Shown here piece by piece: positions 20,826-63,455 of a stretch of 64,000 nucleotides of DNA. How positions within the stretch are numbered: the first letter of the stretch is position 1; each line of letters begins with the position of its first letter. The stretch spans positions 1 to 64,000 of the forward strand of contig CAVXVB010000011.1 in the NCBI GenBank assembly GCA_963765205.1. The letters run 5' to 3'. Source of the DNA: an uncultured Verrucomicrobiae bacterium. Lineage in GTDB: Bacteria; Verrucomicrobiota; Verrucomicrobiia; Opitutales; JABDGR01. The notes under the pieces are model-generated. The model was not told the DNA's origin. It saw nothing but the letters and a program-made list of their open reading frames with translations, and made no database searches. Made by a program: the position numbers and the translations under genes.

Positions 20826-20873
20826 AACGCTCAACTTTCAACGCTTAACGCTTACATTAAAAGTTGAGCGTTA
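20826..20873. repeat. Heptamer array (AACGCTY family) with inverted arm
   Basis: AACGCTC AACTTTC AACGCTT AACGCTT ... TAAAAGT TGAGCGT TAA. Confidence 0.7.
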
Positions 20874-20991
20874 ATGCGGTTTCAGGCCATGCAACGACTG
20901 GCGGGCGGTGTCCAAGCTGCCGCCCTTGCCCGCACCCGCGCCGTGCGTGGGAAGGCAATCAAAGCGGCCGGTCTGGCGCCGAGCCACCCGG

Positions 20992-21558
20992 TCATCCGCG
21001 AGGACGTTCTTCACCGCGATTATCCTGGCCGCCGCCGTTTGCGGGCGCGCGGCGAAAATGTTCGTGCAGCAGCGCGACCGCGCCGGCGATTTCCCCATGC
21101 CACTTTTCCAGTGCCTCGAGCCGCCCGACGGCAAACGCGGGATTCGGCGCGGCCATTTGGCCGCCCAATTTCAGCAACCCGCGCCCGAAGCGCAGGCGCT
21201 CGCCCCACGCTTGCACGTCGGGATCCACCTGGTCGGCGAGAAATCCTTTTGCGATGCGCTGCGTATCCGTCTCCGCCTGATAAAACTCGCGCCGGTCGCC
21301 GACGACGAACGCCGTGCGCACGGCGTCAAAACGCCGGAGATAATTCAATCCCATGCTCGCCGACCCGCGACTGATTTGAAGGCGCTCAGCAATATCGTCG
21401 AGCGATAGAGGATGTTCGGAGGCGTAGAGCAACCCGAAAATCTGCCCTACGGATTTCGGAAGCCCCAGAAATTGAGCCACTTGCATAAAAAAATCAATCA
21501 ATGCCTCCTCCCACGGGGAAAGCTTAATTGTCTCTATCTTATTGACGTTCTCACTCAT
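20992..21558 (-). CDS. GbsR/MarR-family transcriptional regulator
   Basis: LGLPKSVGQIFGLLYASEHPLSLDDIAERLQISRGSASMGL, GDRREFYQAE. Confidence 0.85.
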   Translation of the reverse strand: MSENVNKIETIKLSPWEEALIDFFMQVAQFLGLPKSVGQIFGLLYASEHPLSLDDIAERLQISRGSASMGLNYLRRFDAVRTAFVVGDRREFYQAETDTQRIAKGFLADQVDPDVQAWGERLRFGRGLLKLGGQMAAPNPAFAVGRLEALEKWHGEIAGAVALLHEHFRRAPANGGGQDNRGEERPRG

Positions 21559-21618
21559 GCAAAAGAATCTTATGGGTAGCGACTTATGAAATTAAATAGC
21601 TCAAACAAAGCCTCATCA

Positions 21619-21634
21619 TTCAGTTTTTTCTGAA
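21619..21634. promoter_or_regulatory. Palindromic candidate autoregulatory operator TTCAG-N6-CTGAA
   Basis: TTCAGTTTTTTCTGAA ~60 nt upstream of the regulator start. Confidence 0.5.
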
Positions 21635-21791
21635 CGATTCAAGCTTATTTGCTGGAGCGGGTGCTCTCGATCTGAAAAGCAGAACGGCGGGTCAAGCACA
21701 CCCCGTCCTGACAACATTCATTTCGTTGCGGAATCAAAGGGTAAGGTGCAGCTTCCGGACGCGTTGCCTTTTGCCCTCCGGACCACTTCCT

Positions 21792-22214
21792 TTACTCCCG
21801 CCCGGCCACGAACTCCAGGCTTTTGCCATCCGTGCGCAAGCGCCGGTAAAAACACCCCGCCCGCGGTTTCCCATCCGTGCCCTTGGTGTGGCAGGAGCCT
21901 TGGCCGGCCGGCCGCACGCGATAGAGCAGGCTGTTCTGTTCGCAATTTATGCGCACCTCCAGGAGTTCCAAAAAATCCCCCGAGGTCTTGCCCTTGATCC
22001 ACAATTCGTTGCGGCTGGTGCTCCAGAAGGTCGCCTTGCGCTCGCGCAACGCCGTGTCCAGCGCCAGTTGGTTGGCGTAGCCGATAATCAGCACCTCGCC
22101 CGTCGCGTGGTCTTGCGCAACGGCGGGCACCAGGTCTTGCCCGCACGCGGCGACTTTTTTCAGCTTCGTGAAATCCAGCCGCAACTGGGAGCCTTCTTCA
22201 AGGTCGTGGTTCAT
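21792..22214 (-). CDS. hisI: Phosphoribosyl-AMP cyclohydrolase
   Basis: LVPAVAQD, FWSTSRNELWIKGKTSG, INCEQNSLL, SCHT...CFYR; start MNHDLEEG. Confidence 0.9.
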   Translation of the reverse strand: MNHDLEEGSQLRLDFTKLKKVAACGQDLVPAVAQDHATGEVLIIGYANQLALDTALRERKATFWSTSRNELWIKGKTSGDFLELLEVRINCEQNSLLYRVRPAGQGSCHTKGTDGKPRAGCFYRRLRTDGKSLEFVAGRE

Positions 22215-22220
22215 GGGAAA

Positions 22221-22301
22221 GGACGAAGGATGAAGGATGAGGGATGAAATGGGAAGTGTGGAATGTGGAGCGTGAAGTGTGGAGTGCAGAATGCGGAATG
22301 C
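22221..22301. repeat. Two abutting heptamer arrays (GGATGAA x4; GGARTGY x7)
   Basis: GGACGAA GGATGAA GGATGAG GGATGAA, then GAAGTGT GGAATGT GGAGCGT GAAGTGT GGAGTGC AGAATGC GGAATGC. Confidence 0.8.
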
Positions 22302-61233: not shown

Positions 61234-61273
61234 GGGGTGGGGGAGACTATCTATAAGAGCAGGGAAACCCCGC

Positions 61274-62020
61274 GTGAACAAAATAAATTCAACTTCCGCC
61301 GGCCGGGCCGTTTTCAGCGGGGTCTTGCTCCTCGCCGCCTGCGCCCGGCCCGCCGCCCCCGCGCCCGCCCTCGACCCCCGCTTTGCGGCCGGCCCCGTGC
61401 TCTACGCCGACGATTTCCTCCACGGCCTCGCTCAATGGGTGCCGGAATTGGAAAAGGGCGGCCAGGTCGCCGCGCAGGACGGCCGCCTCGAAATCAACGT
61501 CCCCGCCGGCTGCACGGTCTGGTTCCAGCCCGAACTCACCGGCCCGGTGCTGATTGAATACGACGCGACCGCTCTCCAGGCCGGCGGCCCCAACGACCGC
61601 GTCAGCGACCTCAACTGCTTCTGGATGGCGCAGGACATCCGCCGCCCCGGCGATCTGCTCGGCCTGCGCCGCACCGGCCAGTTCGAGGATTACAACCAGC
61701 TCCTCTGTTACTACGTCGGCCAGGGCGGCAACTCGAACACCACCACCCGCTTCCGCCGCTACATCGGCAGCCCCGACACCCGCCCCCTCCTTCCCGAGGA
61801 CGATCTGAGCGCGCCTGAATTTCTTCTCACCCCCAACGCCCGCCAGCACCTTCAACTCGTGGCGGATGGCGGCCTTATCCAGTATTACCGCGACGGCCGC
61901 AAAATTTTCGAGTTCCACGACCCCGCCCCCTACACCCACGGCTGGTTCGCCCTCCGCACCACCCAGAACCACATGATCGTCGAGAATTTTGTCGTCCGGC
62001 GGCTCATTCCGAAAAGATGA
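61274..62020 (+). CDS. DUF6250-like (YesU/ConA-like fold) lipoprotein
   Basis: Lipobox LAAC; GCTVWF, DRVSDLNCFWMA, YYVGQGGNSNTTTRFRRY. Confidence 0.7.
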   Translation: MNKINSTSAGRAVFSGVLLLAACARPAAPAPALDPRFAAGPVLYADDFLHGLAQWVPELEKGGQVAAQDGRLEINVPAGCTVWFQPELTGPVLIEYDATALQAGGPNDRVSDLNCFWMAQDIRRPGDLLGLRRTGQFEDYNQLLCYYVGQGGNSNTTTRFRRYIGSPDTRPLLPEDDLSAPEFLLTPNARQHLQLVADGGLIQYYRDGRKIFEFHDPAPYTHGWFALRTTQNHMIVENFVVRRLIPKR

Positions 62021-62134
62021 AGGATGAAGGATGGCACGGAAATTTTCTCGTAATAATTCAAGAAGAAATAGGGAATGAAAAAACTAAATGGACGTGAGCC
62101 GTTTTTTTCATCCTTCATCCCTCATCCTTCATCC
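62015..62134. repeat. Inverted heptamer arms GGATGAA x3 / TTCATCC x4; each arm supplies a stop codon
   Basis: TGA 62018-62020 and TCA 62122-62124 lie inside the arrays. Confidence 0.8.
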
Positions 62135-62316
62135 TTTTTCTTCCACCGCTGCCCCACCGCCTGGCGCAACAGATATTCAATCTGCCCGTTCGTGCTCCGC
62201 AGTTCCGCCTGCGCCCACGCCTCCAGCTCCCGCATCAAATCCGGGCTGACGCGCAGGAGGAAGGCCTTGCGGGCTTCCTCCGGCGCGGGTTGGCTCTGGT
62301 TGCCGGTTTTAGTCAT
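62122..62316 (-). CDS. Arc-like ribbon-helix-helix DNA-binding protein
   Basis: [35 protein letters not shown]. Confidence 0.85.
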
Positions 62317-62417
62317 GGCAGGTTGGATTGCCCCACCGCCCTTGCGGGCCAGGGGAACCTTGTCGAGGGTTGCAGGCATTTATTGAGTTGTGGATGTTGG
62401 ACTGGCGTGGATTTTAT

Positions 62418-62459
62418 CTTCTAGTTTCCGGCTCCTGACTTCTGAATTCTGACTCCTTA
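62418..62459. repeat. Heptamer array (CTTCTGA family) at the SPFH stop
   Basis: CTTCTAG TTTCCGG CTCCTGA CTTCTGA ATTCTGA CTCCTTA. Confidence 0.7.
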
Positions 62460-63398
62460 ATTATACAGCGTCCCCGTGTTAATCACCGGCTGCGCATTCG
62501 ATTCGCCGCACAACACCACCAGCAGGTTGCTCACCATCGCGGCGCGCCGCTCGTCGTCCAGATGTACCACCTTGCGCTCGGACAGCTCTGTCAGCGCCAT
62601 CTCGACCATGCTCACCGCGTTCTGCACGATGATCTTGCGCGCGGACACGACGGCCTGCGCCTGCTGGCGGCGCAGCATCGCCTCGGCGATTTCCGGGGCG
62701 TAGGAAAGGTGCGAAATGCGCGCCTCATCCACCAGCACCCCCGCCTTGTTCAGCCGCTCCTGCAATTCGCGCAAGAGCGCGGCGGAGACGGCCTCGCCGC
62801 CCCCGCGCAGCGTGATTTCGTCCTTAGTGTCCGTCGTTTCGCCTAGGTCGTAGGCATAGGAACTGGCCAGGTGCCGCACTGCCGACTCGCTCTGGATGTT
62901 TACGTAGCGGTTGTAGTCGGCCACGTCGAACTTCGCCTGCGCCGTGTCCGCCACGCGCCAGACCACGACGGCCGCAATCTCAATCGGGTTGCCGTGCTTG
63001 TCGTTCACCTTCAGCTTCTCCGAGTTGAGATTATACGCGCGCAGCGACATCTTGGTGAACTTCGCGTAGAACGGATTGGCCCACCAGAAGCCGCTCTGGC
63101 GCACCGTTCCCTTATACGCGCCAAACAAAATCAGCAGCCGCGCCTCGTTGGGCTGGAGCGTGAAGAAGCCGCCCAGCAGGAAGAAGAACGCGATCATAAC
63201 CAGCACGCCGGCGAAGACCAGCACGACCTGCAGCACGTTCATTGGGTAGTGGGTGCCGAGGGGCGTGCTGATGGCGGCGAAGACGAAAAGCGCGATGCCG
63301 CCGCACAGCAGCAGCAGATTGAAGCCCAGCATGGCAAAGCCATTCATGGCGTCCGTCGGGATTTCCCGGCTGGGAATCGAGGGTGTGGGAGGATTCAT
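62457..63398 (-). CDS. SPFH (band 7) domain membrane protein
   Basis: [58 protein letters not shown]. Confidence 0.92.
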
Positions 63399-63455
63399 TT
63401 TTTGTTTTGGGTTTTGGGTTAGAGTGTCGGGTTTTGAGTTTCAAAAGAAAGTGAT

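Follow-up and report, generated by a model that had tools for sequence, protein, structure and literature searches.

Heptamer modules dispersed in a Verrucomicrobiae genome and their match to clades of four-helix-bundle proteins

Tandem repeat arrays with a period of 7 nt are dispersed over gene junctions in a 64,000-nt stretch of DNA from an uncultured Verrucomicrobiae bacterium (assembly GCA_963765205.1, contig CAVXVB010000011.1, positions 1 to 64,000), which we call the window. Each unit family in the window matches one clade of the four-helix-bundle protein family PF05635/TIGR02436, and one of them does so across phyla. We observed the modules, the left-right order of their arms, the match to protein clades, gain or loss at individual sites, nesting of families and the presence of modules inside reading frames. 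According to our best reading, the modules are gene-less copies of the arms of cassettes that carry such genes, similar to REPINs (hairpins formed by doublets of repetitive extragenic palindromic sequences, REPs). The family-by-family match and the series of alleles in relatives are new here.

The genome under study (G000) is a 4.02 Mb assembly that is 92% complete, and the window is G000:C11:1-64000. Gene positions are from our own codon-model predictor, which gave 3201 genes in G000; single starts may be off. Gene names were taken from NCBIfam and Pfam.

An earlier note on this DNA had listed arrays at 22 coordinates. The arrays are real: repeats are present at, or a few bases from, all 22. 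Between positions 19,000 and 64,000 there are nine period-7 arrays with a score of at least 10, compared with a mean of 0.23 and a maximum of 2 in 30 third-order Markov simulations, and the whole window contains 1, 4 and 0 arrays at periods 5, 6 and 8. Genome-wide, G000 has 486 period-7 arrays, against 30, 141, 82 and 31 at periods 5, 6, 8 and 10. The comparison with periods 5, 6 and 8 had been fixed beforehand as a refuting check, and the enrichment of period 7 over all three is evident. Period 7 is not the sole period, and 8-mer and 9-mer families of the same design are present in G000.

Arrays are concentrated at gene ends. Of 405 strong arrays in G000, 69% are at most 30 nt from a predicted start or stop, versus 13% under random placement and 22% under random intergenic placement (maximum 26% in 20 draws), so placement is non-random, as the note had claimed. 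Its statement that most arrays are within tens of nucleotides of a start or stop holds for 21 of the 22 coordinates (at most 52 nt) and fails for 40291, which is inside kdtA/waaA, in frame, 576 nt from the end of the gene. Polarity is strict: 144 right arms and 3 left arms precede starts, 94 left arms and 14 right arms follow stops, and arm ends are mostly 2-14 nt before starts. Such proximity may be tolerated because the host hardly uses Shine-Dalgarno sites (a similar motif precedes 67 of 1877 genes in G000). At distances of 20-150 nt, neighbours of the same family form 94 inverted and 3 direct arrangements, with left-right order in 95 of 96 pairs and one tie. The inverted arrangement around a spacer, described earlier as frequent, is therefore the rule among pairs; pairs themselves are a minority, comprising 216 of all 606 arrays in the pairing count, and only 23 of 175 strong unpaired arrays have a weak partner. 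The orientation of genes flanking the elements equals the background (69:17:11 versus 1072:291:209). At least two families occur in 48 of 305 array-bearing intergenic regions, and some are concentrically nested. One region (G000:C4:58585-58843) has three concentric families, with GTGGAGT outermost, AACRYYS in the middle and GTTTCGA innermost. Elsewhere (G000:C5:552803-553074) a tRNA-like sequence is located between two GATTTAT-family hairpins.

The modal copy number is four in five families (38 of 71, 55 of 74, 35 of 51, 21 of 42 and 34 of 63 arrays) and five in AACRYYS (20 of 34); a few arrays are expanded to 11-13 units. Among the 71 GGATGAA arrays, 35 have the variant CTCATCC as their third unit, and one exact 28-mer of this family occurs 16 times in G000. 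The arms that flank the matching gene in G000, G003 and G006 show the same pattern, with CTCATCC as unit 3. Since one variant is found at the same position at unrelated loci, local slippage does not account for the arrays. Arms do not match their own partners better than they match the rest of their family (42 of 80), and no site-specific compensation between arms was found among these 80; the arms are therefore shaped by a template common to the family, not by a stem particular to each site. The earlier statement that length is conserved while sequence is not is thus correct for length only, as sequence is kept within each family down to the variant-bearing unit.

The spacers are unique, as had been supposed: only 28 of 97 match elsewhere in the genome. 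These matches are mostly to other repeat arms, which rules out a shared internal sequence of the kind found in miniature transposable elements with inverted repeats (MITEs). Spacers have 48% GC versus 55% for other intergenic DNA. No target-site duplication was detected in 96 pairs, where the longest word shared between flanks averaged 3.17 versus 3.32 in shuffled sequences. Profiles of seven clades found no gene remnant above reversed controls in any of 346 array-bearing intergenic regions of G000, blastx of the G000 spacers gave one borderline match, equal to the control rate, and a whole-genome profile scan of G000 returned only the seven known four-helix-bundle genes. Five of eight folded window elements have z at or below -4.3; the exceptions start at 30272 (z -1.95), 24575 (-0.67) and 46360 (-0.82).

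The note had suggested that such arrays flank TIGR02436 genes and had remarked that no such gene is present here. Both statements hold. All seven PF05635/TIGR02436 genes of G000 are outside the window and between protein genes, and two of them contain in-frame stops. Inverted arms enclose six of the seven, extending from the upstream stop to the downstream start, and the seventh has a decayed right arm only. From the flanking peptides we take cassette junctions to be gyrB-gyrA, atpG-atpD, argF-argG and moxR-DUF58. The family is present in 21 of 31 genomes of the order and has 9,466 representatives at 50% identity. We analyzed 77 genes, of which 72 have both flanks and 61 passed a joint repeat score. 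Among these 61 loci the period is 7 in 47, 8 in eight, 6 in five and 9 in one; all five period-6 cases belong to one clade, and most of the period-8 and period-9 cases to another.

The clades that match unit families of the window are held by the following loci and genomes:
GGATGAA: G000 (with an intact gene at G000:C8:327307-327702, minus strand), L049 and L051.
TGGTGCT: L012, L034-36 and L039.
GGAATGC: L021, L050 and G000.
GAATKAY: L047, L048 and G000.
AATCAGG: L010, L024 and L066.
GTTTYGR: L038 and G000.
AACRYYS: L034.

The match was assessed on the 61 retained loci, after rows with weak arms had been dropped, and was restricted to pairs that differ in both genome and junction. Units agree at five or more of seven positions in 33% of 75 pairs with at least 50% protein identity, versus 6.7% of 1566 other pairs (0 of 1000 permutations); kin among these pairs are not independent. 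The FDLEERL clade, to which L034 belongs, extends over many phyla. Among the best 80 of its 278 loci, 78 have both flanks; 44 of the 78 have both arms, all with period 7 and 27 of them with AAYRYYS units, versus 0 of 63 controls. Among 80 of the 120 metagenome loci with four units of the Xanthomonas heptamer GGGAATC, a four-helix-bundle gene was found at most 700 nt away in two cases, one of them with partly similar arms. Two further observations concern individual genes. The open reading frame of the GGATGAA clade, at L388:108-503 (G000:C8) and in L051, has a possible ATG start inside its own left arm, with AAGG before it. L027 (G030) has GTTGAAA arms, i.e., the reverse polarity of the AACRYYS family, and these accompany a different protein clade.

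Module load, counted as pattern matches with overlaps in genomes that are 50-96% complete, follows the matching gene in three of four families tested. GGATGAA gives 38, 61 and 17 matches in three holders versus 0-21 in seven other genomes; among the latter, most of the higher counts come from pure runs, frequently located at the ends of contigs. AATGGAA gives 20 in G000 versus 0-3 elsewhere, and TGGTGCT 9-43 in five holders versus 0-7. The reversed-pattern control of the TGGTGCT test was uninformative because a pure ACCAAGA run, when reversed, is its own rotation. The number of genes fails as a predictor of array density, on a coarse sample of 40-100 kb per genome.

The elements of the window and the alleles of their junctions in relatives are listed below; z refers to folding. 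The alleles are not rooted on a tree, and some of the short ones may be losses.
20826..20872: AACRYYS left arm accompanied by a shorter-than-usual fragmentary partner, a short right arm, 39 nt 5' of the ABC-2 permease start (20787, minus strand); G004 has a short junction without arms.
22219..22304, minus strand: stacked right arms before the hisI start (22214), a GGATGAA module adjoining the ATG with GTGGAGT/GCGGAAT modules behind it; G006 has the GGATGAA module only, G003 has GGATGA, GTGAAGT and AGACAGG stacks, G002 has none.
23655..23798: GGATGAA hairpin with a 98-nt spacer between the convergent tolB and surE stops (z -4.46); the junction has 167 nt in G000, 9 nt in G004 and 24 nt in G006, and other unit families in G001 and G003.
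24590..24670: degenerate GCGGAAT/GCTGAAT arms between the dapA stop and the surE start (z -0.67); 94 nt in G000 versus 13 (G001), 16 (G003) and 18 nt (G002).
25701..25732, plus strand: solo TGGTGCT-family right arm before the pilT start (25744); also in G001, G002, G003 and G008, absent from G004, G006 and G007.
26900..26998 (within 26895-27000): gene-less 9-mer hairpin of the ACGGAGRAC family after the pilT stop (z -6.28), absent from the earlier list; its unit is the arm unit of the GxxExxY gene of G000.
29362..29468: TGGTGCT hairpin filling the geneX-scpA junction, its left arm starting at the stop codon (z -6.50); a 119-nt hairpin in G000, 21 nt in G001, 24 nt in G004, an 8-mer arm with a GTAG-type doublet in G002, and in G003 307 nt, where the same arms enclose the final third of a four-helix-bundle gene of the matching clade (E 1.7e-10).
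30282..30393: AACRYYS pair, the left arm in the last scpA codons and the right arm preceding the following start (30405); G003 retains a right arm from this family, and the junction is short in G004 and G006.
35744..35761, minus strand: short GAATTAY arm, 18 nt before the start of a LOG-family gene (35726); no version of the junction was recovered from a relative.
38222..38253, plus strand: solo GGATGAA right arm, a canonical four-unit module ending 8 nt before the start (38261) of a major facilitator superfamily (MFS) gene.
39566..39705: AACRYYS hairpin separating the stops of the convergent MFS and kdtA genes, with the MFS stop inside the left arm (z -4.60); 134 nt in G000 versus 3-15 nt in G003, G004 and G006.
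40282..40398, minus strand: in-frame loop of KdtA/WaaA (39715-41103) with stacked GATTTGA and GTTTCGA right arms (40291-40372).
46395..46466: arms from two families, AATCAGG and ATTCTGC, in the interval from the glmM stop to the following start (z -0.82); other families in G003, none recognised in the remaining relatives.
62013..62136: GGATGAA hairpin with a 73-nt spacer between convergent stops, the stop of a DUF6250 gene being inside the left arm (z -4.28); 17 nt in G001 and 32 nt in G005.
62418..62452: AGTCAGR-family arm between the stop of a band-7 gene and the start of a ribbon-helix-helix gene.
63404..63442: GTTTYGR arm between the stop of the next gene (63456) and the start of the band-7 gene, with a related arm in G003.

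Filled and empty alleles at orthologous junctions support the earlier suggestion of a mobile system. The proposal that the G000 arrays are themselves empty sites was not borne out, as the empty alleles of relatives at several junctions are only 3-32 nt long and have no arms. Their description as scars fits one site, geneX-scpA with its gene fragment in G003, and is at odds with the lack of remnants in the 346 regions of G000 and with modules in frame inside genes. At junctions where relatives have a full cassette, G000 often has a gene-less hairpin, usually of a different unit family. The hisI stacks of G000, G003 and G006 suggest that a new module joins the stack at its gene-distal end.

Reading frames have been entered as well. 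G000 contains 31 modules in 20 predicted reading frames, 18 of them with Pfam families; some modules near N-termini may reflect wrong start calls, and the internal cases were checked. Orientation in frame is family-specific: GTTTCGA is right in 13 of 14 cases, AATGGAA left in 6 of 6 and AACRYYS left in 6 of 6. The KdtA loop has 39 residues in G000 versus 9-18 in seven relatives and 63 in G008, where the insert has a different unit, namely that of G008's own gene L037. MnmE has about 70 extra residues in G000 that are absent in four relatives. For MnmG the figure is 258 versus 107-192 residues, and the modules are nested, left arms followed by right arms. Modules occur in the MutL linker in five of five genomes compared. 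Because of its stop codon, a whole cassette is incompatible with the frames of kdtA, mnmE and mutL; therefore modules enter without the gene. The mnmG stack (G000:C7:84429-86537, L374; L394-L398) is located between copies of a 16-bp palindrome that we take to resemble a parS site. There are two copies of the palindrome in G000, G001, G004, G006 and G008 and three in G003. This bears on annotation, since stretches of housekeeping proteins like KLETRNSKLET and MEDGKWKMEK come from the translation of modules and are not domains.

The predicted fold of the GGATGAA-clade protein of G000 (mean confidence score pLDDT 94.7) has Foldseek matches to 2RLD, 2GSC (XCC0516 of X. campestris) and 4DWL, the last being Avd, with a TM-score of 0.73 by query length. 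Avd is a pentameric barrel, and in the parts of the preprint used here all five subunits contact an RNA stem-loop, with flipped-out bases in the crevices between them (bioRxiv 2023.10.23.563531). Taken together, the fold, the copy number and the match to clades indicate that a matching Avd-like pentamer probably recognises the modules. We propose that fixed modules of 4-5 units, identical to those in the arms of PF05635 cassettes, would spread gene-less as short inverted pairs or single arms, and that the matching protein would help this spread in trans. The pentamer might bind a single-stranded module with about one unit per subunit. This would account for a constant period and copy number alongside a unit that changes from one protein clade to another. 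The bound piece might then be inserted by enzymes of host recombination or repair. Insertion is assigned to the host because the protein has no known catalytic domain and neither a target duplication nor a reverse transcriptase was found in G000; this is the weakest step and a guess. Surviving modules would gather where they are harmless, i.e., at gene junctions, in flexible protein loops and in the loops of older elements, and a minority of sites would be decayed whole cassettes. We give a probability of about 60% to the spread of gene-less modules with the matching pentamer as recognition factor. A wider proposal is put forward tentatively, as one that may well prove wrong: four-helix-bundle pentamers could be sequence-specific, non-catalytic mobilisers of their own modules, forming a selfish REPIN-like system without a transposase, in which the ring sets the 7-base period and the 4-5 copies and the clade sets the unit. 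The heptamer excess and new protein loops could result from it, and GxxExxY genes with 8-mer or 9-mer arms could be a parallel.

Several observations weigh against this explanation. The relatives compared (G001-G008 and others) are related and incomplete, so the counts overstate independence. Orthologous genes at moxR-DUF58 carry units that differ between genomes, and the unit of L052 differs from that of 64-67% identical kin; either specificity is loose or arms have been converted to locally common modules. Unit and protein could also co-vary merely by travelling together. The unique, AT-richer spacers are not explained by a copy-and-paste element. AACRYYS has a load of 39 in G000, where no matching gene was found in the 92% complete assembly, and of 23 in the holder G001. 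The samples contained 0 period-7 arrays per 100 kb in G029 (12 four-helix-bundle genes) and 1 in G030 (9 such genes), versus 9.8 in G000. With 0-1 arrays per 100 kb in genomes with many of these genes, the gene is therefore not sufficient, and G000 has had a burst.

Every hairpin could instead be the ruin of a whole gene cassette, with arms kept by gene conversion or selection around a drifted spacer. The G003 gene fragment between the same arms at geneX-scpA, the in-frame stops in two of the seven G000 genes, full cassettes in relatives where G000 has a gene-less hairpin and the AT-drifted unique spacers all agree with this, as does a Coxiella strain with a 176-bp deletion in its gene of this family, reported in the portion of PMC4990558 cited here. 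The absence of remnants from the array-bearing regions of G000 makes it unlikely, however, together with the usual difference between the unit family in G000 and that of the cassettes at shared junctions and with the in-frame modules of kdtA, mnmE and mutL, where a stop-bearing gene could not sit. That the arms are host signals for regulation or RNA processing, with a stem that either joins stop to start or serves as an RNase III substrate, like the intervening sequences of 23S rRNA, and a protein that tunes translation, agrees with stems spanning stop to start and arms ending just before starts. In a part of PMC4990558 RNase III cuts the Coxiella intervening sequence at the first heptamer, and a similar role is proposed for TAACTGA repeats in a part of PMC4679880. 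We hold this to be quite unlikely: close relatives lack the element or have a swapped family at the same site, and RNA processing in particular poorly fits such turnover. An arm shows no preference for its own partner, the orientation of flanking genes equals the background, most arrays are single, and some are in coding loops.

A known enzyme could mobilise the hairpins, i.e., a Y1 transposase (REP-associated tyrosine transposase, RAYT) or a GxxExxY nuclease, with the four-helix-bundle gene as a passenger. G000 has four PF01797 (Y1 transposase) matches over the cut-off and one GxxExxY gene of the same architecture, and GTAG-type doublets share array junctions in G002 and G008. Yet it would leave unexplained why the unit follows the four-helix-bundle clade across phyla, the GxxExxY gene carries a frameshift and goes with a 9-mer family of its own, and the arms have neither GTAG/CGTC ends nor internal palindromes; the idea is very unlikely. 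Ordinary heptamer microsatellites produced by local polymerase slippage and tolerated between genes are barely credible. The heptamer excess is general in bacteria, with slippage proposed as its cause (Mrazek 2007, as cited in a passage of PMC4679880), and the few arrays of 11-13 units would agree with it; but slippage does not account for fixed copy number, left-right order or the match to protein clades and is contradicted by variants conserved in position at unrelated loci.

The sole GxxExxY gene of G000 (G000:C8:182384-182733) has 9-mer arms in a cassette-like layout, and its module pattern matches 55 times in G000; G003 has an intact gene at the same junction (L233). Most of the relatives' copies (n = 19) have 8-10-mer arms by eye, of which the heptamer-tuned score caught only a part. 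G029 has 20 GxxExxY matches, many covering the first 40 residues only, and a period-8 excess in the 100 kb sampled.

Some other features of the window were recorded. Positions 1-17000 have 43% GC, compared with 62% in the remainder, contain no period-7 array and have short open reading frames matching helicase, SocA antitoxin, methyltransferase, CBS/CorC and RuvB. The only Rfam match in the window is a bacterial small signal recognition particle RNA (RF00169, 47.2 bits) at 14934-15032, and Rfam has no family for the hairpins. Directly 5' of this RNA is a long inverted repeat pair with 9-mer units (GAGAACACA) at 14490-14600 and 14740-14860, about 250 nt apart. A REP-like inverted doublet (AGCGCGGT...TAAAGCACCGCG) is intergenic at 49141-49200, before 49328. 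At 20764-20777 the initial codons of the ABC-2 permease gene, which is on the minus strand, contain a run of 14 G, a possible slippage site.

The heptamer excess of bacteria, for which slippage was proposed, and the PF05635 family, which has solved structures and no assigned function, are two puzzles that are possibly joined here. The unusual abundance of 7-base repeats in bacteria may be due to a matching protein system. The approximately ten unit families side by side in G000 amount to a table of protein clade versus repeat unit, and if the match is causal, this is mobile DNA that carries no transposase. A literature search, in which most subscription journals were outside coverage and supplements were unread, turned up no publication that connects clades of PF05635 with families of dispersed repeats and no account joining REPIN-like spread, the rRNA intervening-sequence protein, dispersed heptamers and in-frame entry.

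Parts of these features are known from other systems. REPINs and RAYTs, as described in sections of Bertels and Rainey 2011 (PMC3116915), likewise comprise more than one repeat family in a genome, with a single small gene for each family as the proposed mobiliser in trans, and inverted doublets with a less conserved spacer, hairpins and singlets that are extragenic. Here, however, tandem non-palindromic heptamers, not palindromic REPs, flank PF05635 genes (the flanks of PF01797 genes are outside this comparison), the partner is a four-helix bundle without a known catalytic site and not a tyrosine transposase, singles outnumber pairs, spacers are unique and modules enter reading frames. Rickettsia palindromic elements and prokaryotic MITEs, according to parts of PMC10969869, likewise enter unrelated housekeeping genes in frame and spread non-autonomously. 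They are about 150 nt long, whereas the periodic modules described here are about 30 nt and have no shared internal sequence, target duplication or matching transposase. The fold of Avd from diversity-generating retroelements is shared with the PF05635 protein; unlike those elements, G000 (92% complete) yielded no reverse transcriptase (PF00078). The 23S rRNA intervening sequence of Coxiella, in the part of PMC4990558 used here, has an open reading frame of the same protein family inside an inverted-repeat stem, with tandem GACAGAT heptamers in the 5' arm before the gene, which decays by deletion. The cassettes described here are between protein genes in seven of seven cases, and gene-less modules are about a hundredfold more numerous. 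Dispersed heptamers of Xanthomonas and Nostoc (PMC4692102) and the TAACTGA repeats of Beggiatoaceae (PMC4679880), as portrayed in portions of these reports, likewise have mostly four units, are intergenic and show the same polarity to starts and stops; X. campestris has 70 close inverted pairs among 186 arrays (part of PMC4692102). The arrays of G000 share all of the features that define dispersed heptamer arrays, i.e., period 7, about four units, intergenic position and polarity to starts and stops. The portions cited of PMC4692102 and PMC4679880 treat one family per study and read it as quadruplexes or regulator sites, and the term "helix bundle" is absent from PMC4679880; in G000 about ten families coexist, each with a matching protein clade.

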